Shown here one piece after another: positions 1-29,502 of a stretch of 64,000 nucleotides of DNA (position 1 is its first letter; each line of letters starts with the position of its first letter). The position numbers were made by a program, and so were the translations under genes. This DNA comes from Patescibacteria group bacterium (GTDB lineage Bacteria > Patescibacteriota > Patescibacteriia > 2-12-FULL-60-25): contig JAGOUY010000005.1 in NCBI GenBank assembly GCA_018061025.1, positions 11,377 through 75,376 of the forward strand, written 5' to 3'. A model generated the notes under the pieces. It searched no databases and was not told where the DNA came from. It saw only the letters and a list, made by a program, of their open reading frames with translations.

Positions 1-357
1 GATGTCTCCAAGGTAGACTTCTTGTTCGCGGTCGATACCCGTGCGTTTGTTGACGAGACGTGTTTTGACACGCAGGGGCGCCTCAAAATTCACGTTCTTT
101 TCTTTGGACGTCTTTTCATCAAACTTTGGTTCGTCGATGTAGTAGTCAACGAAAAAGAGCTCGAGGTCACGGCCGATAAAATCTTTGATCGGCGAGATCT
201 CTTTCATGAGCTCGCGAATCCCCTCTTCTAAAAACCAACGATAGGAGGCTTTCTGAACCTCGATGAGGTCAGGCAGCGCCATGGCATCACGGGCGGCGGT
301 AAAATAGCGACGCTCATCATTGGTGGGAGCGTGGCGGCGGAACATCATTGTAGGCAT
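1..357 (-). CDS. rpoB: DNA-directed RNA polymerase beta subunit, N-terminal 119 codons (gene runs off the window start)
   Basis: Not in the ORF track because there is no stop in the window. Reverse complement from the ATG at 357-355 reads MPTMMFRRHAPTNDERRYFTAARDAMALPDLIEVQKASYRWFLEEGIRELMKEISPIKDFIGRDLELFF..., a typical RpoB N-terminus. Confidence 0.85.
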   Translation of the reverse strand, partial: MPTMMFRRHAPTNDERRYFTAARDAMALPDLIEVQKASYRWFLEEGIRELMKEISPIKDFIGRDLELFFVDYYIDEPKFDEKTSKEKNVNFEAPLRVKTRLVNKRTGIDREQEVYLGDI

Positions 358-762
358 GGTGTTCTGGAACACTCATATTTGGCGAATTTCTTCGTTGCGC
401 TCTGCGGTGCTCGACGTCGTACCTTTTAGTACGCCTTACTCCGCTCCTCGAGCGCGCCTCGAACTTCACCAAATCTGAGCGTTCTTTTTGACGTGGGTCA
501 GCACGTGAGTCTTCCTTATATAAGGACAATCTGTTGGCGAGAAAGGCCAGCCGGAGTGAGATCGTGCCCTAGATAAGAAGACTCGAAAAGGGATAAATTG
601 TCTGAAAATGACTCAAGCTACCAAAACACCTCTCGACAAAAATGGCTTTGCTGAGAGGTTTTTAGGCGGTTAGCATGGCAGGCGTAAACATGCAAATTTC
701 GCTTGAATAGCGGGACTTTACCCTACTCCTTATATAGAGTCAAGGGCGACGGCCGACCTCTC

Positions 763-791
763 TTGACAAAATCGGGAAAAAGGCGTATAGT
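763..791 (+). promoter_or_regulatory. sigma70-type promoter TTGACA-17 nt-TATAGT
   Basis: TTGACA at 763-768, a 17-nt spacer, then TATAGT at 786-791. No ORF follows. A terminator lies ~400 nt downstream. Confidence 0.55.
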
Positions 792-797
792 ACTTCT

Positions 798-1197
798 TCA
801 GCCTGCAACGGTACCTGCTTCTTTCCAATGTGTTGCTGGCGGACCTGTTGAGAGCCTCCACAGAGGACCTTTCGACAGCCACCCTTGAATAGGTCTGGAT
901 CCGGTTTCGACTGGAACCTCTCCTAAACAAGCCTATGGGAATAGCATCGTTACGGCGATGTGCTTCCCGCCCCGTCATCAACACAGTGGAAAGAATCCCC
1001 CTTTAAAACGACGTTGAGACGAGGAGAACCCTTCTGCACCCCGAATACGGGCCGTGCGGGAGTGAGTGCGACCTTCGAGCCGGCGGATACGTCTGCCTCC
1101 CTGGAAGGAAGCGCTCTTTGACCGGACGGCCTTCGGGCCTACCCGTTCATCTTCTCATCTTAGCGACGTTTCCCCAGTCAAATGACTGGGTTTTTTG
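798..1197 (+). ncRNA. unclassified ~400-nt non-coding transcription unit (class unknown)
   Basis: Bounded by the near-consensus promoter at 763-791 and the intrinsic terminator at 1172-1197. It contains only short noise ORFs and has local stems, for example CCTGCAAC 802-809 pairing with GTTGCTGG 832-839. The segment GGATCCGGTTTCGACTGG (897-914) resembles a tmRNA 5' region, but no 3' tRNA-like end was found. Confidence 0.4.
1172..1197 (+). terminator. rho-independent terminator
   Basis: CCCAGTC aaat GACTGGG followed by TTTTTT (1191-1196). Confidence 0.7.
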
Positions 1198-1209
1198 TTT
1201 TCGTTTTGA

Positions 1210-1254
1210 TTCCCCTCCTCCGGCGAGGAGGGGTAAGGGGAGGAGTTCCAAGAA
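1210..1254. repeat. 45-nt palindromic repeat (CCCCTCCTC-cggc-GAGGAGGGG plus tail); second copy at 43054-43098
   Basis: TTCCCCTCCTCCGGCGAGGAGGGGTAAGGGGAGGAGTTCCAAGAA here. The copy at 43054-43098 has one mismatch. Confidence 0.85.
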
Positions 1255-1289
1255 ACAATGGTAGCGGTGGGTTATACGGCGCTTTTCTA

Positions 1290-1318
1290 TTGACTTTTCG
1301 CCTATTTTTTGGTATTAT
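1290..1318 (+). promoter_or_regulatory. promoter TTGACT-17 nt-TATTAT for the GC-rich three-gene operon
   Basis: TTGACT at 1290-1295, a 17-nt spacer, then TATTAT at 1313-1318, sitting in AT-rich sequence ~120 nt upstream of the ATG at 1436. Confidence 0.5.
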
Positions 1319-1435
1319 TTTCTGTCGTTCTTTGATAGATTGTCCGAAATGGATGCGTGAAATGCGGTGATTTTAGGCACCCGTTTCGGACGGAAAGACA
1401 TCAACGGCCAACACGGCCAGAACCGCGGAGCAACC

Positions 1436-1831
1436 ATGAATACGCACATTGCCAACATCTTCCGCTTCCTCCTCACCAACCAGAGCCGCATCATCATCCT
1501 CCTCGCGGTAGATGTGCGCGCGAACGGACTCGAAAGCTTCCTGCGGGCTTCGGGCACTCCACAGAGCTGCACGGTCGCGTTCCTCGGAACGGAGGGGCTG
1601 GCCGCGACCCTCGGTGTGCAGACGCCGCCCGCCAGCGAGCTCCACGAACGCCGCCTCGTCTACCACAGCGACCCCAAGCTGCTCAACGAGCTCGGGTGGG
1701 CTATCGTGGACGCGGCCGCTGCGCTGGGCTACGAGCTGAGCGAGAACAGCGCTCAACGCACGGAGCCGATGCGGCTGGGTCAGGCGTGCTACATCCGGAT
1801 CAAGGACGGGCGCCTGGAGCTCACCAAGTGA
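1436..1831 (+). CDS. hypothetical protein, GC-rich gene A (131 aa)
   Basis: Lies in the frame of track ORF 1367..1831. The start is taken at MNTHIANIF, which is preceded by GGAG. Amino-acid composition is balanced, unlike the Arg/Pro-rich alternative frames. The gene is strongly GC3-biased. Confidence 0.55.
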   Translation: MNTHIANIFRFLLTNQSRIIILLAVDVRANGLESFLRASGTPQSCTVAFLGTEGLAATLGVQTPPASELHERRLVYHSDPKLLNELGWAIVDAAAALGYELSENSAQRTEPMRLGQACYIRIKDGRLELTK

Positions 1832-1836
1832 CTGAT

Positions 1837-1918
1837 CCCACCCTCTGACAAGGACATGCTGTTACGCTGTCCTTCTCTCCCCTGCGTGTTTCTCGAAAGA
1901 GGAACGTGAAGGGGTGAG
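1837..1918 (+). repeat. post-gene two-hairpin element E1
   Basis: CCCACCCTCTGACAAGGACAtgctgttacgcTGTCCTTCTCTCCCC...TTTCTCgaaaGAGGAA...GGGGTGAG. It starts 6 nt after the gene A stop. Homologous to elements at 2360-2444 and 3263-3349. Confidence 0.85.
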
Positions 1919-1970
1919 CAAATCGCTCATGCACTTCAACGGCCAATAAAAAACCTCAAGAAGGAACCCC

Positions 1971-2357
1971 ATGCGCGCAATCAATCTCGATGTTTCCCCC
2001 TTCATCCAGTTCCTGCTGGCGGGCAACCGCCTGTTCACGGTTGTCAGCGATGATGCAAGGGTAGCGCGTAGCGCCGTGCAGGTGAGCGGGGAGGGAGAGA
2101 TCTCTCCCATGCCCTTCAACGCCATGCAACCTGCTAAGGAGATGGAGGCTGACATCGCAAAGCACGCGGTGAACGGCGTACTCATCCTCTATGGAGCGGG
2201 AGACGACCTCCTGTTCCTGCTCATGCTGACCATGAACGGACTCCGCCTCCCCGAGATCAGCAGGACGACGCGCACCGCTCCGATGAATCTCGCGTTGGGG
2301 ATGACCGTCATCTGCATCTTCGTGAAGGATGGCACCGTATACTACGAGAAGGTCTAG
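1971..2357 (+). CDS. hypothetical protein, GC-rich gene B (128 aa)
   Basis: Track ORF with plausible composition. No family recognised. Confidence 0.55.
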   Translation: MRAINLDVSPFIQFLLAGNRLFTVVSDDARVARSAVQVSGEGEISPMPFNAMQPAKEMEADIAKHAVNGVLILYGAGDDLLFLLMLTMNGLRLPEISRTTRTAPMNLALGMTVICIFVKDGTVYYEKV

Positions 2358-2359
2358 AT

Positions 2360-2444
2360 CCCCCACCCTCTGACAAGGACATGCTGTTACGCTGTCCTTC
2401 TCTCCCTTTCGTTTTTCTCATCATGAGGAAGATAAGGGGGAGAG
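2360..2444 (+). repeat. post-gene two-hairpin element E2
   Basis: The 5' half is the same as in E1. The second hairpin has a different loop (atcat instead of gaaa), but pairing is preserved with G-U pairs on the + strand. It starts 3 nt after the gene B stop. Confidence 0.85.
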
Positions 2445-2521
2445 CGCTGCACACTTCTGTCGCAGCATCTACCAACGACCACTCAGGTAGCCAATCCTGA
2501 GAGAAAGACGAGAGGCTCAAC

Positions 2522-3199
2522 ATGAGCACGATCCAGCCGCCTTCGCCCGCCCCGATCCAGCCGCCCGCCGTCTGCCCCGGGCAGGGCTGGCGAGATGTCA
2601 ACCAGCTCTTCCCCAAGGAGAACTTCATGCTGGTGTTCCCCGCCGCTGCCCTCGCAGGGCTCGTGCACTGGCTGGTCTACAAGACGGAGCACTACAGCCC
2701 CATCTGGGTCGTCATCGTTCCCCTCCTCTGTCTCTGGGCCTCGGAGCGCATCCGCAGCACGCGGGTGCGGTACTGGCTCCAGAACGAGCTGACCCTGACC
2801 AGGCAGACGATGACCCACCAGCTGCAGGACGTCTGGGAGGAGTTCCAGGGCTGGAAGGGCCACATCGGCTTCCTGAAGACCAACATGGGCATTCCGATCG
2901 TCGTCAAAGGGAGACCGCTCGGGTTTCTCGTCGCCATGCGGTTGGGGGATGCACACCCCCTGATCTACCCCCTGGATGAGCGGACCGGTTTTTTGGAGGG
3001 GTCGGGCCTGACGGCATGGGCAAACAAGATCGCGGGCTCGAACTCCTATGCCGTGAACGCGGGTCCAGGGATCAACAACTCCTCTTCGTATGGAGAAATG
3101 CTTCTCCTCCGCCAGGGTGACTGGGCATACGCGGGCAGCACCTCCCTTGGTGGCGCCCTCCAGCTCCTCGACCAGGTCCAGAGGGTCTTCACGCACTGA
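2522..3199 (+). CDS. hypothetical membrane protein, GC-rich gene C (225 aa)
   Basis: Track ORF with hydrophobic segments FMLVFPAAALAGLVHWLVY and IWVVIVPLLCLWA. No family recognised. Confidence 0.55.
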   Translation: MSTIQPPSPAPIQPPAVCPGQGWRDVNQLFPKENFMLVFPAAALAGLVHWLVYKTEHYSPIWVVIVPLLCLWASERIRSTRVRYWLQNELTLTRQTMTHQLQDVWEEFQGWKGHIGFLKTNMGIPIVVKGRPLGFLVAMRLGDAHPLIYPLDERTGFLEGSGLTAWANKIAGSNSYAVNAGPGINNSSSYGEMLLLRQGDWAYAGSTSLGGALQLLDQVQRVFTH

Positions 3200-3262
3200 T
3201 TCCGAACGGCTCTACCGATTAATTTTATAGCCGAGGACATCGTCGTTTATATCCGCAAGTAG

Positions 3263-3358
3263 CCCCTTCCCACCTCTGACAAGGACATGCCGTTACGCTG
3301 TCCTTCTCTCCCCTGCGTGTTTCTCGAAAGAGGAATGTGAAGGGGGGAGTTTTGTTTT
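3263..3358 (+). terminator. element E3 (third copy), here followed by a T-tract; operon terminator
   Basis: Same sequence family as E1 and E2. The outer stem CTCTCCCC...GGGGGGAG is followed by TTTTGTTTT (3350-3358). Confidence 0.7.
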
Positions 3359-3363
3359 ATCGT

Positions 3364-3516
3364 CTAAAGATGTTTTTTAACATCCTCCCACGTCACACCA
3401 CTACAAACTTCGATTTGTTTTAAGATGTACTTGAGGGATTGTCTTGGGAGAGGTACTAACGCATTTAAAAACTTGGCGCGATTTATTTCTCCCGGTAGCT
3501 CGCTAAGCGGTGGCAT
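3364..3516 (-). CDS. possible 50-aa small ORF overlapping the end of the upstream gene (weak HicA-like C-terminus)
   Basis: Below the track threshold. Reads MPPLSELPGEINRAKFLNALVPLPRQSLKYILKQIEVCSGVTWEDVKKHL. Its ATG (3516-3514) lies 14 nt inside the 3503..3829 ORF. No catalytic motif recognised. Confidence 0.3.
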   Translation of the reverse strand: MPPLSELPGEINRAKFLNALVPLPRQSLKYILKQIEVCSGVTWEDVKKHL

Positions 3517-3829
3517 AGACGGCCGCCTCTGCTCGCTGTCTTTTTATCCCGGCTTCTTGGGCATATGAAGAAGGAACTTCAAATGCCGTCAGGATGGCAT
3601 CTCGGATATTTCTATCGAGCTCTTTCTCGTTGACTCCTTGCGTAATGATGCTGCCGAACCGAAAATTTTGACTCACCGCGATAATTGCTCCGTCTTCTTT
3701 ATGTTTTTCAAAATTGATCGGCCCGTAGTTTTGGAAATATTTATGCAGCTCAACCAGGCCGGCGGGAACGGTTTTCTTTCCTAGGTATGCTTTAAACAAC
3801 CAATCTTTTAAAATTTTTGACGGCTTCAT
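3503..3829 (-). CDS. hypothetical protein with HicB/UPF0150-like segment
   Basis: The segment EDGAIIAVSQNFRFGSIITQGVNEKELDRNIRDAILTAF resembles the HicB-type antitoxin fold pattern (..TQG.t.eE....i.dAi). This is recall only and was not searched. Confidence 0.45.
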   Translation of the reverse strand: MKPSKILKDWLFKAYLGKKTVPAGLVELHKYFQNYGPINFEKHKEDGAIIAVSQNFRFGSIITQGVNEKELDRNIRDAILTAFEVPSSYAQEAGIKRQRAEAAVYATA

Positions 3830-3906
3830 ACTTTTTTTACGCTAGCAGATTTTTTGTTGTTTATCAACCCTTGACAACTCCTCCTATCTATGGAACGGGG
3901 TGAGAT

Positions 3907-5424
3907 ATGTCTGATTCGATTTTGACGGCTTCGATTGTGGGACTGGATGCGTATCCGGTGCGGGTGGAAGCGGATATTACCTCGGGGTTATCTGCGTTTA
4001 TTGTGGTTGGGTTGCCGGATGCCGCGGTGCAGGAGGCGCGGGAGCGGGTGCGGAGTGCACTCAAACAAAGCGAGGTGTTGTTTCCGCGCACGCGGGTAGC
4101 GGTGAATTTAGCGCCGGCGGATGTGAAGAAGAGTGGGACGCCGTTTGATGTGGCGATGGCGCTTGCGATTATGGTGGCGCAGGGAGATTTACCGGCGCGC
4201 TTACCGAACGTGATGGTGGTGGGTGAGTTGGGATTGGATGGGTCGGTGCGGCCGATTCATGGAGTACTTGCCGTGGCGGCACTGGCGAAACGGGAAGGGA
4301 TTGAGGAACTGATTGTCCCCGCGGAGAATGCGGCGGAGGCGGCCTTGATTGGGGAACCGGTGCGGGTGCGACGGGCGGCGACACTGCGACAGATCATGGA
4401 ACATTTGTTGGGACGCGAGCCGCTCCCAGAAGAACCATGGCAAGCACCATGCCTGGATCGTCATACAACGTATGCCTATGACTTTGCGGCGATCCGTGGA
4501 CAAGCGCAGGCGAGGCGGGCGCTAGAGATTGCGGCGGCGGGAGCACACAACTTAGTGATGCAAGGACCGCCGGGATCGGGGAAGACGTTGCTCGCGAGGA
4601 GCTTTCCTTCGATCTTGCCGAATATGACGTTAGAGGAGGCGCTCGATGTGACGCGCATTCATTCGATTGCAGGAATTTTGCCGAAGCGTGGGCTTATGAT
4701 TGAGCGGCCATTTCGCGCACCACATCATAGCGCGAGCATGGTGTCACTGATTGGTGGTGGAGCCATGCCGAGGCCGGGAGAGATATCGCTCGCACATCGT
4801 GGCGTCCTTTTTTTAGATGAGATGTTGGAATTTCCACGGACCGTGCTTGAGAGTTTGCGACAACCCTTGGAAGATGGAACGGTGACCGTGAGTCGGGCGC
4901 AAGGGAGTTTGCATTTTCCGGCACGTATGATGTTTGTAGGGGCACTTAATCCTTGCCCATGTGGGTTTATGACGGATGCGGATCGGCGCTGCGAATGTAC
5001 GCCGATCCAGATCAATAAGTATCGCAAACGTTTAAGTGGACCTCTACTGGATCGGATTGATTTATTTTTGGAAGTACCAAAAGTGAAGACGCAAGAGCTT
5101 TCGGATGTTGAGCTAGCAGAATCGAGTGCCGCTATCCGTACGCGCGTAGAAGCGGCGCGACAGCGACAACTGGAGCGCTATCGCACGGTTGGATTAACGG
5201 CGAATAGCGAGCTCGGAAGTCACCAGGTGCGCTCGCTCCTCACGATCCTCCCGGAAGCCAAGACTTTATTACGCCATGCCACAGATCGCTTTAAATTATC
5301 GGCGCGCGCGTATTTTCGTACGATGAAAGTGGCGCAGACGATTGCGGATTTGGCCGGGAGCACACAGGTGGAGACAGAGCACATGGCGGAAGCATTACAG
5401 TACCGTCAGCAGGAACATTTATAA
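3907..5424 (+). CDS. comM: YifB/ComM family Mg-chelatase-like AAA+ ATPase
   Basis: N-terminal Lon-like domain (VGLPDAAVQEARERVRSAL), Walker A GPPGSGKT, and Walker B/sensor region RGVLFLDE. Confidence 0.9.
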   Translation: MSDSILTASIVGLDAYPVRVEADITSGLSAFIVVGLPDAAVQEARERVRSALKQSEVLFPRTRVAVNLAPADVKKSGTPFDVAMALAIMVAQGDLPARLPNVMVVGELGLDGSVRPIHGVLAVAALAKREGIEELIVPAENAAEAALIGEPVRVRRAATLRQIMEHLLGREPLPEEPWQAPCLDRHTTYAYDFAAIRGQAQARRALEIAAAGAHNLVMQGPPGSGKTLLARSFPSILPNMTLEEALDVTRIHSIAGILPKRGLMIERPFRAPHHSASMVSLIGGGAMPRPGEISLAHRGVLFLDEMLEFPRTVLESLRQPLEDGTVTVSRAQGSLHFPARMMFVGALNPCPCGFMTDADRRCECTPIQINKYRKRLSGPLLDRIDLFLEVPKVKTQELSDVELAESSAAIRTRVEAARQRQLERYRTVGLTANSELGSHQVRSLLTILPEAKTLLRHATDRFKLSARAYFRTMKVAQTIADLAGSTQVETEHMAEALQYRQQEHL

Positions 5425-15738: not shown

Positions 15739-16812
15739 TTATTCTTCTGGAGGAGCCTCCTCATCCGCTGGAGGTGGGGTGCGCGCAGGAAGCGCGCCTT
15801 CGGAGGCTTCACGAGCTTGGTAGGTCACAATACATTTTTCACGGATTTGCTTGAGGAGATCCGGACGTTCACGGAGCGTACTCTTCGCCGCTTCGCGACC
15901 GACGCCCAACTTTTCTGAGTCGAAGCTATAGGTGTTACCGCTTTTGGCGACCACGCCAAGCTCGACCCCCGCATCTAACAAGTCGCCGGATACAGAGATC
16001 CCTTCGTTATACATGATGTCGAATTCACAGGTGCGGAAGGGAGCGGCGACTTTGTTTTTTACGATTTTTACTTTAACACGATTACCGATGATCTTTTCTC
16101 CCATTTTAATTTGCGCGGAACGACGGACTTCGACACGCACGGAACAGTAGAATTTAAGCGCGTTGCCGCCAGGCGTGGTTTCTGGGTTGCCGAAGACGAT
16201 ACCGATTTTTTGACGGATTTGGTTGATGAAGACGACGGTGGTCTTGGAGCGGGAGATGATGGCGGTGAGCTTGCGGAGGGCTTGGGACATGAGGCGCGCC
16301 TGAAGACCCATGTGCTGATCTCCCATGTCGCCTTCAATTTCTGCTTTAGGCGTAAGCGCGGCGACGGAATCGACCACGATGACATCGACGGCATTAGAGC
16401 GCACCAAGGTTTCAACGATATCGAGGGCTTGTTCACCCGTGTCTGGCTGAGAGATGAGGAGTTCGTCGATGTTTACGCCAATTTTGCGCGCATAGTCTGG
16501 ATCGAGCGCATGTTCGGCGTCTACGAAGGCCGCTACCCCACCCGTTTTTTGCGCTTCGGCGATGACGTGCTGGGCGAGCGTGGTTTTTCCAGAGGCTTCT
16601 GGACCGTAGACTTCGATAATACGGCCACGAGGAAAACCGAGCACGCCGAGCGCCATATCAAGGGAGAAACAGCCGGTAGGAATGGCATCGATTTGCATTT
16701 TGCGGGCTTCGCCGAGACGCATGATGGAACCGTCGCCAAATTTTTCTTTAATTTGGTCGATGGCGGTTTTGACGGCTAAGGAGCGGCCGTCTTGTTCAGA
16801 TTTTTTTGGCAT
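15739..16812 (-). CDS. recA: recombinase RecA
   Basis: [10 protein letters not shown]-loop. [14 protein letters not shown] and a typical RecA core throughout. Confidence 0.97.
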
Positions 16813-18262: not shown

Positions 18263-19570
18263 TTATTTTATTTGTGCATGTGTGATAACAGCCTTCTCCG
18301 CTGTTTGCAGGCTGTGGATAATTTTATGGAGCATCCAGATGATGAGATACGCGACGATGAGCCATGCAAGTGGGAGATATGTCTTATCTAAATAGCCGAA
18401 TTTTATTCTTTCTGGCCAACGGGCAATTGCTAAAATTGCCCATAGACATCCGGATGCAGGCAAAGTTATTATCTGACACCAAACGGAAGCAGTTGGTATG
18501 ACAAGCGCGAGTGCACCGAGACCCATCGTCCAAGGGATGAGGGGGAGGACAATGAGACCGGTCGGTAATCCCCACAACGTAAAAGAGCCGAAGGCCCAAG
18601 CACCGTAGGGTGTCGTTAATATCGTAGCAGCGAGAGTGGATGTTACTATTTCGCGCAGCATCTCTGAAGATATATATTTTGTGAGGACGGTATCTATCAG
18701 ACGACCGTAGGTGAGTAGGCCGGTCATCGCAAGAAATGAGAGCGCGAAGGAAGCGTCAAAGAAGAGTGCCCAGGGGTGCCAGAGGGTAAAGCCGAGGGCG
18801 GAGATGAGCAGGAGACGGCTGGGACGGATGAGACGACCGGCCAGCGGGGCGAATTGCACCAGAATCCCCATGATGGCGGCGCGTACGACGGCGGCAGAGG
18901 CCCCGACAAAGACAGTGAAGAGGATGACGCCGATGACCATGCCGATAAAACTTTGACGACGTGAGAGATGGAAGAGCGCCAGACAACGGGCAACGACTAC
19001 GACGATGATCGTCATGTTGGAACCGGAGACGGCGATGATATGGGTGAGACCGGCGTGACGGAAGGCGGTCTTAGCGGCTTTGGATAAATTGCGGTCGCCG
19101 TAGAGGATGCCTGTGATGAGGGCGGCTTCGTCCGGGACAAAGCGCTCGCGGGCACGCTGGGTCAGACTTTTATGAAGACGTGTCAGCCAGTAGCGTGGAT
19201 CGAAGCGGTTGGAAATGTAACCCGGAGCGTTACTCGTCGCGAAGCCCTTTGGATCCGCGAAGATGAGGCCGCGTGGAAGAGAAGGTTGCGCGAGAGAGAA
19301 GCGATAGACCCCTAACAAGACAAAACAGATGATGAGACAAATTCTGGAAATGTAATTGAGGGTCACGTCTGATCCTGTTTCCTTATAGAGGACCAATCCG
19401 ACTCCCCCACTTATACTTATAGCAATGAGGAGCCAGAGCTGTGGGATGGGAATATACGGACGGATACTATGCAGCGCGATGCCCGCGAGGAAAGCGGCAG
19501 CGAAGTGACCGGCGTGGTGGGCGAAGGACATACAACACACCCCGTTCCATGGAACAGGGTGTGTTGTCAA
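18263..19570 (-). CDS. comEC: ComEC/Rec2 family competence channel protein
   Basis: Polytopic membrane protein with GLTHIIAVSGSNMTIIV (competence-domain signature). The true start may be the internal MSFAHHAG. Confidence 0.8.
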   Translation of the reverse strand: MTTHPVPWNGVCCMSFAHHAGHFAAAFLAGIALHSIRPYIPIPQLWLLIAISISGGVGLVLYKETGSDVTLNYISRICLIICFVLLGVYRFSLAQPSLPRGLIFADPKGFATSNAPGYISNRFDPRYWLTRLHKSLTQRARERFVPDEAALITGILYGDRNLSKAAKTAFRHAGLTHIIAVSGSNMTIIVVVVARCLALFHLSRRQSFIGMVIGVILFTVFVGASAAVVRAAIMGILVQFAPLAGRLIRPSRLLLISALGFTLWHPWALFFDASFALSFLAMTGLLTYGRLIDTVLTKYISSEMLREIVTSTLAATILTTPYGAWAFGSFTLWGLPTGLIVLPLIPWTMGLGALALVIPTASVWCQIITLPASGCLWAILAIARWPERIKFGYLDKTYLPLAWLIVAYLIIWMLHKIIHSLQTAEKAVITHAQIK

Positions 19571-26642: not shown

Positions 26643-28043
26643 ATGGACTTGCAAGCACTTTGGCAGTCTGCCCTCGGTGAGATCGAGCTCACCTTATCTA
26701 AGGCCAATTTTACGACCTGGTTTCGCAATACCTTCATTAGTTCGTATGAAAATGGACGGATCGTAGTGGCGGTGCCAAATACGTTTACAAAATCTTGGCT
26801 GGAGCGCAAATACCATGATGCAATTGCAAAAGCGTTGCGTTCGGCCTGTCCGCAACCGATCCGAGAAATCCACTATCGTGTCGAGGTACGCAATACAACG
26901 GTACTTCCGATTGAGCATTTAGCCGAACCGGCTCCTTCTCCCGGCATGGAACAGGAAATGAGCCAGGCTTCGGGGGCGGAGGGATCTTTTGAGCCGACCA
27001 CTCGTGCGGCAGAGCTAGGGCTTAACCCACGCTATACCTTTCCGCAGTTTATTGTGGGGAAAAATAATGAGTTGGCTCATGCGGCCTGTATGGCGGTGTC
27101 GGCAAAGCCGGGGCAAGCGTACAATCCTTTATTTATTTATGGAGGGGTTGGGATGGGAAAGACCCATTTACTGCAGGCGATCGGGCATCATGTCTGCCGG
27201 GACAACAATAATGCCAAGGTGCAGTATGTGACCTGTGAACGATTTACGAATGAGTTTATCCAAGCGGTACGGAGTGGGGCGGCGTCGGATTTTAAGGATC
27301 GTTACCGAACGGTGGATGTGCTTTTGATTGATGATATTCAGTTTTTGACGGGAAAAGAAGGGACGCAGGAGGAATTTTTTCATACGTTTAACACCCTACA
27401 CCAGAACAATAAACAGATCGTCATTGCGTCTGACCGCCCACCAAAGGATATCCAGACCCTAGAAAGCCGTCTTCAGTCGCGCTTTGAGTGGGGCATGATG
27501 ATTGATATCACCAAACCGGATTTTGAAACGCGGGTAGCCATTTTGGAGGCTAAGTCACGTGAGAAGAGTTACCCGCTTTCGACGGAAATCTTGCATATGA
27601 TGGCGGGAGCGATCCAGTCGAACATTCGTGAATTAGAAGGGGCGCTCAACAAGATCATTGCCTACCATCAGTTTAAAAATATCCAGCCTAGCTCGGGCTC
27701 TATCCAGCCTTTGCTCCAGAGCTTTACGCCGACCATTACAAAACGAACGGTGAGTCCACGCTTATTGATTGAAGCGGTACGCGGACACTATGACATCACG
27801 CATGAGCAAATCGTCGGCAAAAGTCGTGAACAACGGTTTGCCTTGCCACGCCAAATCGCGATGTATCTTCTACGCGAAGAGACAAAATGCTCTTTCCCCA
27901 CCATTGGGGATCATTTGGGCGGACGCGATCACACAACAGCCATGCATGCGTGCGAAAAGATTACACACCTTATCCAGAACGATACACAGGTGAAACAGGA
28001 TATCACGCTTATTTTAGAGCATCTCTATAACTCTGCGGCGTAG
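26643..28043 (+). CDS. dnaA: chromosomal replication initiator DnaA
   Basis: Walker A GGVGMGKTHLL and DDIQFL. C-terminal DNA-binding signature IGDHLGGRDHTTAMHA. Confidence 0.97.
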   Translation: MDLQALWQSALGEIELTLSKANFTTWFRNTFISSYENGRIVVAVPNTFTKSWLERKYHDAIAKALRSACPQPIREIHYRVEVRNTTVLPIEHLAEPAPSPGMEQEMSQASGAEGSFEPTTRAAELGLNPRYTFPQFIVGKNNELAHAACMAVSAKPGQAYNPLFIYGGVGMGKTHLLQAIGHHVCRDNNNAKVQYVTCERFTNEFIQAVRSGAASDFKDRYRTVDVLLIDDIQFLTGKEGTQEEFFHTFNTLHQNNKQIVIASDRPPKDIQTLESRLQSRFEWGMMIDITKPDFETRVAILEAKSREKSYPLSTEILHMMAGAIQSNIRELEGALNKIIAYHQFKNIQPSSGSIQPLLQSFTPTITKRTVSPRLLIEAVRGHYDITHEQIVGKSREQRFALPRQIAMYLLREETKCSFPTIGDHLGGRDHTTAMHACEKITHLIQNDTQVKQDITLILEHLYNSAA

Positions 28044-28368
28044 ACCTGTGGGTTTGTTTGGGAAAGCTGGGGGCGGGCTGTGTAGTCGGGAAGTGGGTGC
28101 GTTTGGGAGGAGAACTTGTCCGCAGGATATCCGTGGTTATCCCGGCGGCTCACACAGATGACTGTGGAGGTAATTCTGCAATATCTGCTTTAAAGAGCTG
28201 GGTTTTTGCCGCTTCTCCACATCTCCACATGGCTTATTACTATTACTTCCGTTTTATACACTTAACCCAGTCTATCCCTAAGCCTCCCCTTACTTGTGGA
28301 AAGCCTAGGACTTGAAGGGAAGACGCCTATAGGTCAGGATGAGACGAACCTATCTTATTGCCACGACT
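28044..28368. other. candidate oriC segment in the dnaA-dnaN spacer
   Basis: TTCTCCACA at 28213-21 (8/9), ATCTCCACA at 28221-29 (7/9), TGTGGAAAG at 28296-304 (7/9), and an AT-rich stretch at 28231-28266. Confidence 0.5.
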
Positions 28369-29502
28369 ATGATATTTGCCTGTACCCAAGAGAACCTGCT
28401 GCAAGGGCTTTCCCTGGTTGGCCATATTGCGGGAAAGAGTGCCAACCTACCGATTTTAGCGAACGTCCTTATGAAGGTGGAGGAAGGGACGCTAAAATTA
28501 AGTACGACGAATTTAGAAATGGCGGTATCGGTAATTGTGCGTGGTCGAGTTGATCAACCTGGGGAGTATACGGTGCCAGCTAAATTGTTACAGGACTACG
28601 TGTCCTTGTTGCCTGCGGGAAAAGTCGAGATGAGCGTGACGGAAGAAGGGCTTAAGATTAGCGCGGATGATAAGGTGACAACGATTAAAGGGATGCCCGC
28701 GTCGGAGTTTCCCTTGATTCCAAAATTAGCGCGAGATGGAGCGTATCGGTTTCAGGCGGAGCTTTTGAAGCAAGCGATTGGACAGGTGGCGTTTGCCGTG
28801 TCGAGTTCGGAATCGCGACCTGAGTTATCGGGGGTGTCTTGTGTCTTTCATGGGGAAGAGCGGCCGGATACTCTTTTAATGGCCGCGACAGACTCTTATC
28901 GTTTATCTGAGCGTGTCGTGACGATGGCTCAGGGGGGCAACACGCGTTCGGCGCGCTGTATTGTGCCTGCGAGAGCTCTGGGCGAGATTGGACGCATCCT
29001 GTCGGCGTATAAGGACGATGTAGGGGTACCAGAGGTGGTGGAGTGGTCGATCACGGAGAGCCAATTGGTATTCTCGTACGGAAATGTGGAATTAGTGTCG
29101 CGGTTGATTGAGGGATCGTTTCCTGATTACCGTCCACTTATCCCACAGCGGTTTAAGTCGACGTTTACGGTTCCACGTGTGGAGTTAGCGAAGGCGATTC
29201 GGGCAGCGAGTTTGTTTGCGCGCCAGGGGATCTATGACGTGTTGTTTGAGATGAAGACACCGAATGGATTGAGTATTTCCTCGTCTGATTCTGGGACGGG
29301 GGCGCATACGACGGTGCTTAAGGGTCAGTTGGAGGGGGACGGAAACAAAGTGACGCTTAACTTTAAATATGTGTCGGATGGATTGGCGGCGCTTGGGACG
29401 GACCAGGTAACGATTCGGATGATTGATGCCTTTAGTCCGGTCGTGCTTAGTTCTGAGAAGGCGGAAGGGTTTAAATATATTGTGATGCCGATCCGTCAAT
29501 AA
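28369..29502 (+). CDS. dnaN: DNA polymerase III beta sliding clamp
   Basis: Start taken at MIFACTQENLLQGL. A typical three-domain beta clamp ending in ..YIVMPIRQ. Confidence 0.92.
   Translation: MIFACTQENLLQGLSLVGHIAGKSANLPILANVLMKVEEGTLKLSTTNLEMAVSVIVRGRVDQPGEYTVPAKLLQDYVSLLPAGKVEMSVTEEGLKISADDKVTTIKGMPASEFPLIPKLARDGAYRFQAELLKQAIGQVAFAVSSSESRPELSGVSCVFHGEERPDTLLMAATDSYRLSERVVTMAQGGNTRSARCIVPARALGEIGRILSAYKDDVGVPEVVEWSITESQLVFSYGNVELVSRLIEGSFPDYRPLIPQRFKSTFTVPRVELAKAIRAASLFARQGIYDVLFEMKTPNGLSISSSDSGTGAHTTVLKGQLEGDGNKVTLNFKYVSDGLAALGTDQVTIRMIDAFSPVVLSSEKAEGFKYIVMPIRQ

Follow-up and report, generated by a model that had tools for sequence, protein, structure and literature searches.

A cassette-like gene array with conserved structured intergenic repeats, and a new RNA element, in a clade of Patescibacteria

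Introduction

Hairpins that protect or define the 3' end of an upstream cistron without stopping transcription are familiar from the repetitive extragenic palindromes (REP) and bacterial interspersed mosaic elements (BIME) of E. coli operons, and from the RNase III sites between the early genes of phage T7. Repeated intergenic sequences also occur in arrays of small genes. The recombinase-associated acquired interbacterial defence (rAID-1) clusters of Bacteroidales combine a skewed G+C content, repetitive intergenic sequences, a conserved XerD-family recombinase at one end and homologues of immunity genes, and contain up to 31 genes (bioRxiv 10.1101/471110). In the tandem immunity paralogues esaG and tipC, recombination is mediated by conserved blocks that include the 3' intergenic region and are found inside the genes as well (bioRxiv 10.1101/2022.01.07.475358). 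Here, we analyze a cassette-like gene array with conserved intergenic repeats, together with a new RNA element, in a 64-kb stretch of DNA from a Patescibacteria group bacterium (contig JAGOUY010000005.1; this whole stretch is called the window, and it serves as the + strand reference by whose positions all features are numbered unless a relative is named). The array of the window consists of three genes, A, B and C, each followed by a copy of an element that we call E (E1, E2 and E3).

Patescibacteria, or bacteria of the candidate phyla radiation (CPR), have very small genomes, live for the most part on other cells, and are nearly intractable genetically. The array had been noticed in an earlier reading of the letters without database searches (the sequence-only reading), which described an operon of GC-rich, unrecognizable genes behind a single promoter. 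We found that the usual pattern of conservation is inverted at this locus: the proteins evolve fast, and the non-coding RNA elements that flank them are nearly frozen. Several features lie beyond the earlier description, namely the clade-wide position of the locus, a module that continues ~45 nt past E, a structured RNA that is always found upstream, and non-coding parts that are far more conserved than the genes.

Results

Element E

The three genes lie on the + strand at 1436..1831 (A, 131 amino acids), 1971..2357 (B, 128 amino acids) and 2522..3199 (C, 225 amino acids), and these open reading frames (ORFs), as well as the distances of 6, 3 and 64 nt between their stop codons and the following copies of E, are as the sequence-only reading had them. 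E1 occupies 1837..1918 (+) and consists of a C-rich 5' flank (1837-1849), hairpin 1 (1850-1874) and hairpin 2 (1875-1918), the latter with a GAAA loop. E2 (2360..2444, +) is a variant copy with an AUCAU loop, in which the stem of hairpin 2 is altered and its pairing is kept. E3, the terminal copy, extends with its T-run (TTTTGTTTTAT) over 3263..3360 (+), with hairpin 2 at 3307-3349. Homology between the copies spans ~82 nt, and their 5' half is invariant save for one T/C difference in E3. A 35-nt seed was found at exactly three sites in the 64 kb (1847, 2372 and 3278; mismatches 0, 0 and 1), all on the + strand, and in none of 100 shuffles, so that the proposed homology of the three copies was borne out. 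Each copy folds on the + strand into two hairpins (-35 to -37 kcal/mol, z -2.5 to -3.9), in agreement with the original description: the C-rich flank is followed by a 9-bp hairpin 1 of 25 nt, with an invariant stem and loop, and by a ~19-bp hairpin 2 with one 1x1 internal loop and a tetraloop.

Relatives were found via contigs with A alleles or with the neighbouring gene comM, and the same locus layout was seen in at least five further distinct genomes of related Patescibacteria. The loci compared come from Logan contigs (L003/L004), from the metagenome-assembled genome (MAG) MAG_3749 (L007), from GCA_964615825 and Logan contigs (L012-L014), from the Joint Genome Institute (JGI) series 33000453xx (L015-L019 and L024-L026), from GCA_964541725 and Logan contigs (L020-L023), and from Logan contigs of yet other samples that hold only the terminal E and the comM side (L027, L030-L032). 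Window positions 1-3342 are identical to NCBI contig JAHZTN010009084. The relatives' data are short-read metagenome assemblies throughout. It was observed that contigs begin or end inside E in L001, L002, L004, L006, L026, L027 and L030-L032, which represent several independent short-read assemblies; since assemblies are broken by the E repeat, the locus is probably under-represented or truncated in public MAGs. The odd gene calls in rpoC of L012 result from scaffold gaps of N.

For the analysis of pairing, we aligned 13 distinct copies of E from seven assemblies. Standard pairs are present in 97.0% of the cells, and six pairs have changes on both sides; the observed values were reached in 0 of 500 shuffles, and pairing fell to 49-62% when the 3' partners were slid. 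For example, one pair of hairpin 1 occurs as A-U, G-U and G-C and another changes from C-G to U-A, and in hairpin 2 the changes C-G to U-A and G-U to U-A were found. All 13 copies have U-G at one pair of hairpin 2, and at three further pairs G-U or U-G is found in 9-10 of the 13, which agrees with the earlier claim that the loops differ (GAAA versus AUCAU) while pairing is kept through + strand G-U pairs. On the opposite strand, these G-U and U-G pairs would turn into C-A mismatches, and hairpin 2 has no mirror image in the minus-strand fold; therefore, the selected structure belongs to the sense transcript, and E is a selected structure in sense-strand RNA. The sequence of hairpin 1 is almost invariant in 10 of the 13 copies, beyond what pairing needs, and three of the 13 differ strongly in the loop of hairpin 1 (GTGTCCGTTGAC type), with the pairing intact.

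A T-run comes directly after the terminal copy of E in the window, L015, L027 and L030 and is absent after all internal copies; within the window, the T-tract thus follows E3 only, as had been noted. The L014 copy, of which 27 nt of E are available, continues as the terminal type. When tested for a G+C-rich hairpin with a U-run, E3 and the terminal copies of L015, L027 and L030 were found to have both, unlike E1 and E2, and the terminal E has the form of an intrinsic terminator of the operon. A simple terminator scan missed E3 owing to the 1x1 internal loop in its stem.

No copy of E was found outside the arrays, either in the window, which is the part of the source genome covered by the E and recombinase scans, or in any fetched locus; that is, the search for further copies suggested by the sequence-only reading found them inside arrays and never at unrelated sites. 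Collection scans used exact cores, which diverged copies would escape, and among 185,579 species-representative genomes they found E at a single site, the corresponding locus of a related MAG. Neither E nor the structured RNA described below nor the whole locus was found in viral contigs, phage records or plasmid records. A metagenome scan with a 20-mer of E, in a collection that evidently lacks the JGI samples carrying the locus, returned four chance matches without hairpin context. In the whole window, Rfam identified only four tRNAs at gathering thresholds, and permissive Rfam scans of 1-4000, 790-1210 and 1826-1975 produced only terminator-like matches far below threshold. An identity of E with REP, BIME or miniature inverted-repeat transposable elements (MITE) was rejected, since the window has only three copies in its 64 kb, each of them inside the array and on the + strand, and the exact-core scan of the genome collection found a single locus.

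The module and the shuffling of cassettes

The repeated unit is longer than E itself. The ~45 further nt that are shared between cassettes after E extend it to a module of ~130 nt, which ends in a small hairpin (CAACGGCC-N5-GGCCA) located ~17 nt before the start codon; the same GGCC hairpin closes the leader of gene A, at 1406-1418. Gene-specific sequence runs from just past the GGCC hairpin to the C-rich CC(C)ACCTCTGAC flank, a few nt past the stop codon, and homology between loci breaks sharply after the GGCC palindrome and before the CCTCTGAC flank. The module thus marks the cassette boundaries. The cassette-like periodicity perceived in the sequence-only reading was substantiated in this way: relatives carry different genes between the same conserved modules.

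Array size varies from 2 to 4 genes across the related genomes. The array is A-B-C in the window, A-X2... in L003, A-B''-D... in L007, A-D... in L013, A-D-C-G4 in L015, and A-C in L020 and, across a scaffold gap, in L012. Gene A is the sole cassette found in every genome; the second position is taken by genes other than B in L003, L007, L013 and L015, and B is so far known from this genome only. The comparison of L007 and L015 is the clearest case: their flanks are 95% identical, their arrays differ by exactly one gene-plus-module unit, and the 131 nt shared by their two alignments correspond exactly to the module. L019 is composed of the two ends of the L015 array, namely the part up to and including A and E1 (100% identity) and the part that begins at E3 (99.7%), joined across a single E, and represents either a deletion across E or an assembly chimera. 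In L013 and L014, which come from different samples, the same A gene is followed by different E variants.

No Pfam domain of an integrase, another recombinase or a reverse transcriptase was found in the 35 larger window ORFs scanned, 13 of which had no match at all and which leave out some large ORFs, and there is no recombinase or integrase among the recorded Pfam hits for the called genes of the 20-kb loci L012, L015, L020 and L024. The genome encodes competence and recombination functions, with recA, comEC and comM in the window. Since the scanned ORFs have no recombinase domain and these genes are present, homologous recombination across the repeated module would be the simplest mechanism of cassette turnover.

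Fast proteins and frozen non-coding parts

When the window is compared with L012 or L015, the housekeeping DNA of the neighbourhood (comM and other neighbours) is 80-84% identical. The difference at synonymous sites is 38-67% between genomes, and the housekeeping genes have a synonymous divergence (dS) of 0.52-1.67 and a ratio of nonsynonymous to synonymous divergence (dN/dS) of 0.02-0.07. For cassette genes, dS is 0.31-1.33, dN is 0.16-0.82, and dN/dS is 0.31-0.89. The proteins encoded by A alleles are 29-73% identical (dN/dS 0.31-0.71), and the homologues of C in L012, L015 and L020 are 27-32% identical (dN/dS 0.89 versus L015). Identity between genomes reaches 94-98% for E and 92-97% for the structured RNA. 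Since these values are so far above the identity of synonymous sites, E, the leader and the upstream RNA are under purifying selection. The array proteins, judged by their dN/dS, are under very weak constraint or diversifying selection.

Targeted hypermutation was also considered and rejected: cassette dS is of the same order as housekeeping dS, and hypermutation is therefore not needed for the divergence. Recombination contributes as well. The A allele P0005 is a mosaic: its C-terminal half is identical in the L007 allele, and its N-terminal half is its own. We also observed, at 60-1016 of L025, a C allele whose first ~70 residues are swapped for another N-terminal segment (MAAKIIDRIETFRGLDKSHYFRLVAANNEIVS...), the upstream sequence being different too; this segment presumably resembles the YegP/DUF1508 domain, and such a swap adds to the evidence for mosaic recombination in the array. 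Given the shared position and the housekeeping dS of 0.5-1.7, the locus predates the split of at least six genomes.

Composition and proteins of the array

The composition of the array genes is as unusual as the sequence-only reading had held. The G+C content at third codon positions (GC3) is 0.86, 0.80 and 0.86 in A, B and C, respectively, and ranges from 0.39 to 0.61 (mean 0.524, sd 0.058) in the 19 other genes of the window that were used as the reference, which corresponds to z-scores of 5.8, 4.8 and 5.8. Codon usage is outlying too: the distances in relative synonymous codon usage (RSCU) to the pooled window genes are 1.17 for A, 1.06 for B and 0.95 for C. A and B lie above all 77 size-matched chunks of other genes, the highest of which reaches 1.03, and C lies above the highest whole-gene value, 0.82. 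Both the GC and the codon statistics, which the earlier reading had proposed as a check, thus differ strongly from those of the other window genes. The bias is not confined to the window: all 15 cassette genes across the loci have GC3 of 0.73-0.89, and rpoB, rpoC, comM and the peptidase gene in those loci have GC3 of 0.48-0.60. Long ORFs in other frames and on the other strand were correctly attributed to this bias. The long antisense ORFs of the array have GC1 of 0.80-0.85 and GC3 of ~0.6; since it is GC1 and not GC3 that is high, they are shadows of the + frame, and antisense coding is ruled out by codon-position GC.

None of the three proteins was recognizable in the sequence-only reading, and this did not change. 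A, B and C have no match in Pfam, PADLOC or PHROGs and no housekeeping homologues, and none of eight cassette proteins has a significant match in Pfam, PADLOC or PHROGs. In a search of 5.8 billion clustered proteins, the only matches of B and C are the proteins themselves, and A has a single further allele; an exhaustive profile search with A over 1.84 billion representatives contributed two additional A alleles and no other match. All A matches are alleles from the same clade. A structural model of A has a small alpha/beta fold (predicted local distance difference test, pLDDT, 74; predicted template modelling score, pTM, 0.70) with no PDB match at E <0.1, and a search of the A-family profile against PDB sequences found nothing; the B model, with a pLDDT of 44, is unusable. 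The NCBI annotation of C has 190 amino acids. The start at 2522 (225 amino acids) is better supported, as L015 and L020 have kept both its ATG and the leader. The N-terminus of C contains a hydrophobic stretch that looks, by eye only, like two membrane helices.

Paralogy of A and B was rejected, as BLASTP produced no alignment between them, and a profile-profile comparison of the A and D families returned a probability of 1%. The only significant similarity between cassettes is that of L007 B and L015 D (E 5.5e-7); a shared N-terminal motif and an 'hhhY-x-D-x-x-LL' motif are visible by eye in cassettes and have no statistical support. By these comparisons, most cassettes are unrelated in sequence. 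From the evolutionary pattern alone, we would guess that the array proteins are of a conflict or immunity type.

The structured RNA beside rpoB

The order of the locus is common to all loci: rpoC-rpoB on the minus strand, a conserved non-coding stretch, the promoter and leader, the GC-rich array, comM, and an M23 peptidase gene. The non-coding stretch between rpoB and the array promoter contains an unannotated structured RNA of ~380 nt (797..1199, +), with two multi-helix domains and an intrinsic terminator at 1173-1199. It is preceded by a promoter-like site at 763..791 (+; TTGACA-17-TATAGT, score 11/12), both hexamers of which are conserved in L003, L007, L012 and L015. Positions 763-1199 therefore look like an independent transcription unit with its own promoter and terminator. 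The minimum free energy of the RNA is -179.3 kcal/mol versus -121.4 for shuffles (z -10.0), and a consensus fold built from five genomes comprises two domains and 135 pairs, six of which show compensatory changes, one of these in the stem of the terminator. L020 has an insertion of ~45 nt, located precisely at the linker that joins the domains.

The RNA matches no Rfam family. An identity as transfer-messenger RNA (tmRNA) or RNase P RNA was rejected on negative ARAGORN and Rfam results; the string GGUUUCGAC resembles the tmRNA 5' region, but it comes without a T-arm, a CCA end and a conserved tag frame. Complementarity of the RNA to E or to the leader is no better than that of shuffles (duplex z -0.4 to +0.5). 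The RNA is present with the array in every genome seen, and equally with rpoB; since it accompanies rpoB equally, no functional tie to the array follows from its position.

Other features of the locus

The array genes share one orientation and are located behind one promoter at 1290..1318 (+; TTGACT-17-TATTAT with an extended -10 TG, score 10/12), which the sequence-only reading had picked out and which is 87-95% identical in relatives. The 5' leader of A (1326..1435, +) contains a long hairpin at ~1340-1393 and the GGCC-N5-GGCC hairpin at 1406-1418, followed by the ribosome-binding site; its fold has a z-score of -3.7, and it is 88-92% identical in relatives. We observed that a 'long leader', homologous to the gene A leader, follows some copies of E (L003 3601-3717 and L015 12054-12178); it has a long hairpin as in the A leader, with another stem sequence (z -4.9). 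A weak promoter-like site (7/12, by eye) precedes the long leaders of L003 and L015 only, and some arrays may therefore hold a second transcription start. The intercistronic leader of B (1919..1970, +), assigned from the alignment with the post-E leaders of L007, L013 and L015, keeps the TTCAACGGCCAAT half of the GGCC hairpin motif and continues into a gene-specific ribosome-binding site. The C-type leader (2445..2521, +) has two small hairpins, which are not significant alone (z -1.0); it also precedes the C homologues of L015 and L020 and thus travels with C-family genes.

Further observations concern the surroundings of the array. Downstream of the structured RNA's terminator and ahead of the operon promoter, a G+C-rich hairpin (CCCCTCCTCCGGCGAGGAGGGG) occupies 1211-1232; four genomes conserve it, and L012 has different hairpins in its place. 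Another conserved hairpin (CCTCTCGAC...GCTGAGAGG) with a T-run is located at 628-665, upstream of rpoB, in all related loci and could be a terminator or attenuator for either strand. Between E3 and comM there are two small ORFs of 50 and 108 amino acids (3364-3829, minus strand). The L027 counterpart of the first has 81 amino acids and a weak Pfam match to HicA_toxin; by this similarity, the pair is probably a hicAB toxin-antitoxin, with a hicA that may be truncated in the window, and L020 has a different small-gene pair at this spot. The window also carries recA (15739-16812), comEC (18263-19570) and dnaA-dnaN (26643-29502), and the position of the last pair places the array ~25 kb from the probable replication origin.

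Discussion

The best explanation of these results, which in our judgment stands about evenly between right and wrong, is that E is a cis-acting 3'-end module of cistrons whose repetition also permits the shuffling of cassettes. The array is a lineage-restricted one, fixed between the structured RNA and comM in a single genus-level clade of Patescibacteria, and E in the sense-strand mRNA would mark the 3' end of a cistron. In the last copy, hairpin 2 with its U-run terminates transcription, a role that is legible in the sequence and conserved; at the internal copies, which have no U-run, RNA polymerase would read through, and these copies would block 3' exonucleases and/or be processed by a double-strand-specific (RNase III-type) enzyme, and in both cases each cistron would be left with a stable 3' hairpin. 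The near-identical modules would provide the homology for RecA-type deletion, duplication and swapping of cassettes, possibly with DNA taken up by the competence system of the cell; we infer such RecA-mediated shuffling from the breakpoints.

Several points weigh against this explanation. Many of the relatives' assemblies break inside E, and all are short-read metagenomes; L019 in particular could be an assembly chimera across the repeat. The statement of the sequence-only reading that the element comes after every gene holds for the three genes of the window and fails for the last gene (C) of L012 and L020, which ends in an unrelated terminator without E; it follows that E is not needed by every cistron. 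The near-invariance of the 25-nt hairpin 1 exceeds what structure alone needs, which points to a sequence-specific partner, and its conservation suggests that this partner would be a protein or an RNA that binds hairpin 1. Readthrough, processing and stabilisation at E1 and E2 are what we infer from the sequence, recombination homology alone cannot account for the conservation of E between genomes, and the persistently high GC3 is left unexplained by a cis-acting module.

A rather unlikely alternative, suggested by hairpin 1, is that E is primarily the binding site of an RNA-binding protein or an RNA by which all cistrons of the array are co-controlled, with the hairpins serving to display the invariant sequence and termination being secondary. 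The almost invariant hairpin 1 would be expected in this case, the leaders are conserved and structured too, and E contains the motifs ACAAGGA and GAGGAA, ~45 nt apart, which we take to resemble the A(N)GGA sites of CsrA-type proteins. However, these GGA motifs are in stems rather than in loops, three copies have the GTGTCCGTTGAC-type loop of hairpin 1 with pairing kept, the duplexes of E or the leader with the structured RNA do not exceed shuffles, and no candidate regulator was identified.

We find it improbable that the array is integron-like, in the sense that the module, i.e., E with the GGCC-N5-GGCC palindrome, is the equivalent of attC, that the recombinase is encoded elsewhere in the genome, and that the cassettes come from an unsampled GC-rich pool; in a variant of this explanation, the neighbouring structured RNA might take part. 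A single promoter, a single gene orientation, ORFan cassettes of skewed composition, and near relatives that differ in array content with sharp homology breaks at the module edges would all be accounted for, and there are parallels in integron arrays and rAID-1 clusters. On the other hand, a regular-expression scan of both strands of 1281-3420 found three RYYYAAC sites (1681, 1751 and 2515), none of them in or beside E, where there is no GTTRRRY site either, and no R''...R' core-site pair; together with the lack of an integrase in the 35 scanned ORFs, this upholds the earlier statement that integron core sites and integrase are absent. Recombinases and reverse transcriptases are likewise missing from these ORFs and from the Pfam records of the 20-kb loci. 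E does not fold in the manner of attC, i.e., as an imperfect hairpin of bottom-strand single-stranded DNA: several G-U pairs exist only in the sense RNA, and a DNA hairpin would be poor on either strand. Furthermore, cassette dS is of the same order as that of the genome, so that A at least diverged in place and was not freshly captured, and the breakpoints fit homologous crossing-over in the 131-nt repeat equally well.

A bolder version, to which we give very little credence, is that the module and the structured RNA together constitute an undescribed system of cassette capture and exchange in these ultra-small CPR bacteria, without an integron integrase. The structured RNA would serve as a guide, scaffold or catalyst, and GC-rich genes would be continually imported or rebuilt. 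If true, such a system would explain both the turnover and the persistent odd composition.

The composition also invites the explanation that the locus was recently acquired as an island from a donor rich in G+C (a host bacterium, phage or plasmid), with E as a terminator or repeat of the donor that has no function now. The strongly atypical GC3 and codon usage are consistent with it, as is the lack of homologues in the gene pool of the recipient. We nevertheless regard it as very improbable: the array is at the same position in at least six genomes with housekeeping dS of 0.5-1.7, GC3 has stayed at 0.73-0.89 in all 15 cassettes despite the time to drift, E is more conserved than coding DNA and hence under selection, and nothing similar is found in the 5.8 billion proteins, phage and plasmid records, and viral contigs. 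That E is a selfish small repeat (MITE- or REP-like), inserted by chance after these genes, is scarcely credible, for although it is short, palindrome-rich and intergenic and disrupts assemblies, no copies were found outside the arrays in the window or any fetched locus, the scan of the genome collection yielded a single locus, its orientation and position relative to stop codons are fixed, it has neither terminal inverted repeats nor target-site duplications, and its structure is strand-specific, with G-U pairs.

Three other known phenomena were considered and rejected. For a diversity-generating retroelement, there is no reverse transcriptase in the scanned window ORFs, and divergence is gene-wide, with dS of the same order as that of the genome; no internal repeat of gene sequence was seen in the cassettes. 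The array is not one of clustered regularly interspaced short palindromic repeats (CRISPR), as its repeats of ~82-130 nt are separated by whole genes of 390-680 nt with codon periodicity; no Cas domains were found save for one insignificant match. The 'hypervariation' of Gracilibacteria (PMC6851277) is an in-gene tripeptide repeat and is unrelated.

If E is indeed a 3'-end module, the locus would be a case of how one repeated RNA element organizes a polycistronic message and drives shuffling without an integrase. With E and the ~380-nt RNA, the locus adds two new families of structured RNA. The inverted conservation makes the locus a strong candidate for a system of interaction with hosts or competitors that has dedicated control at the RNA level. 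Since the GC3 anomaly persists through a long divergence, the locus may also lend itself as a natural test of GC-biased gene conversion at a recombination hot spot in bacteria. Its narrow taxonomic range lowers its importance.

Comparison with known systems

Intrinsic terminators are matched by the terminal E, whose hairpin 2 and T-run fit the definition; in contrast, the internal copies have no T-run, and the extra conserved hairpin and flank are not required for termination. With the hairpins of REP and T7, E shares the position of a stable hairpin directly after a cistron in a polycistronic transcript. However, REP sequences are dispersed in hundreds of copies per genome, whereas E is found at one locus, and the T7 sites, unlike the copies of E, are not near-identical to one another.

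Among gene arrays, integrons and clusters of attC sites lacking integrases (CALIN) are similar in their single promoter, their co-oriented small ORFan cassettes of atypical composition, the conserved structured repeat (~60-140 nt) after each gene, and the variation of content among close relatives. The locus differs from them in that it has no core sites and no integrase was found, in that E folds as sense RNA whereas attC folds as bottom-strand single-stranded DNA, and in that the first cassette (A) is present in every genome and diverged in place. The rAID-1 clusters are likewise arrays of small genes with skewed GC and repetitive intergenic sequences, features that are found here as well, and have the look of ongoing turnover; the differences are that no XerD-family recombinase or immunity homologue was found here (in the scanned ORFs and the eight cassette proteins) and that our arrays comprise 2-4 genes versus up to 31. 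In esaG and tipC, as in this locus, homology blocks expand, delete and reshuffle neighbouring fast-evolving genes. Those genes, however, are clear paralogues, whereas most of the cassettes described here are unrelated in sequence, and the conserved part of the present array is a structured non-coding RNA module.

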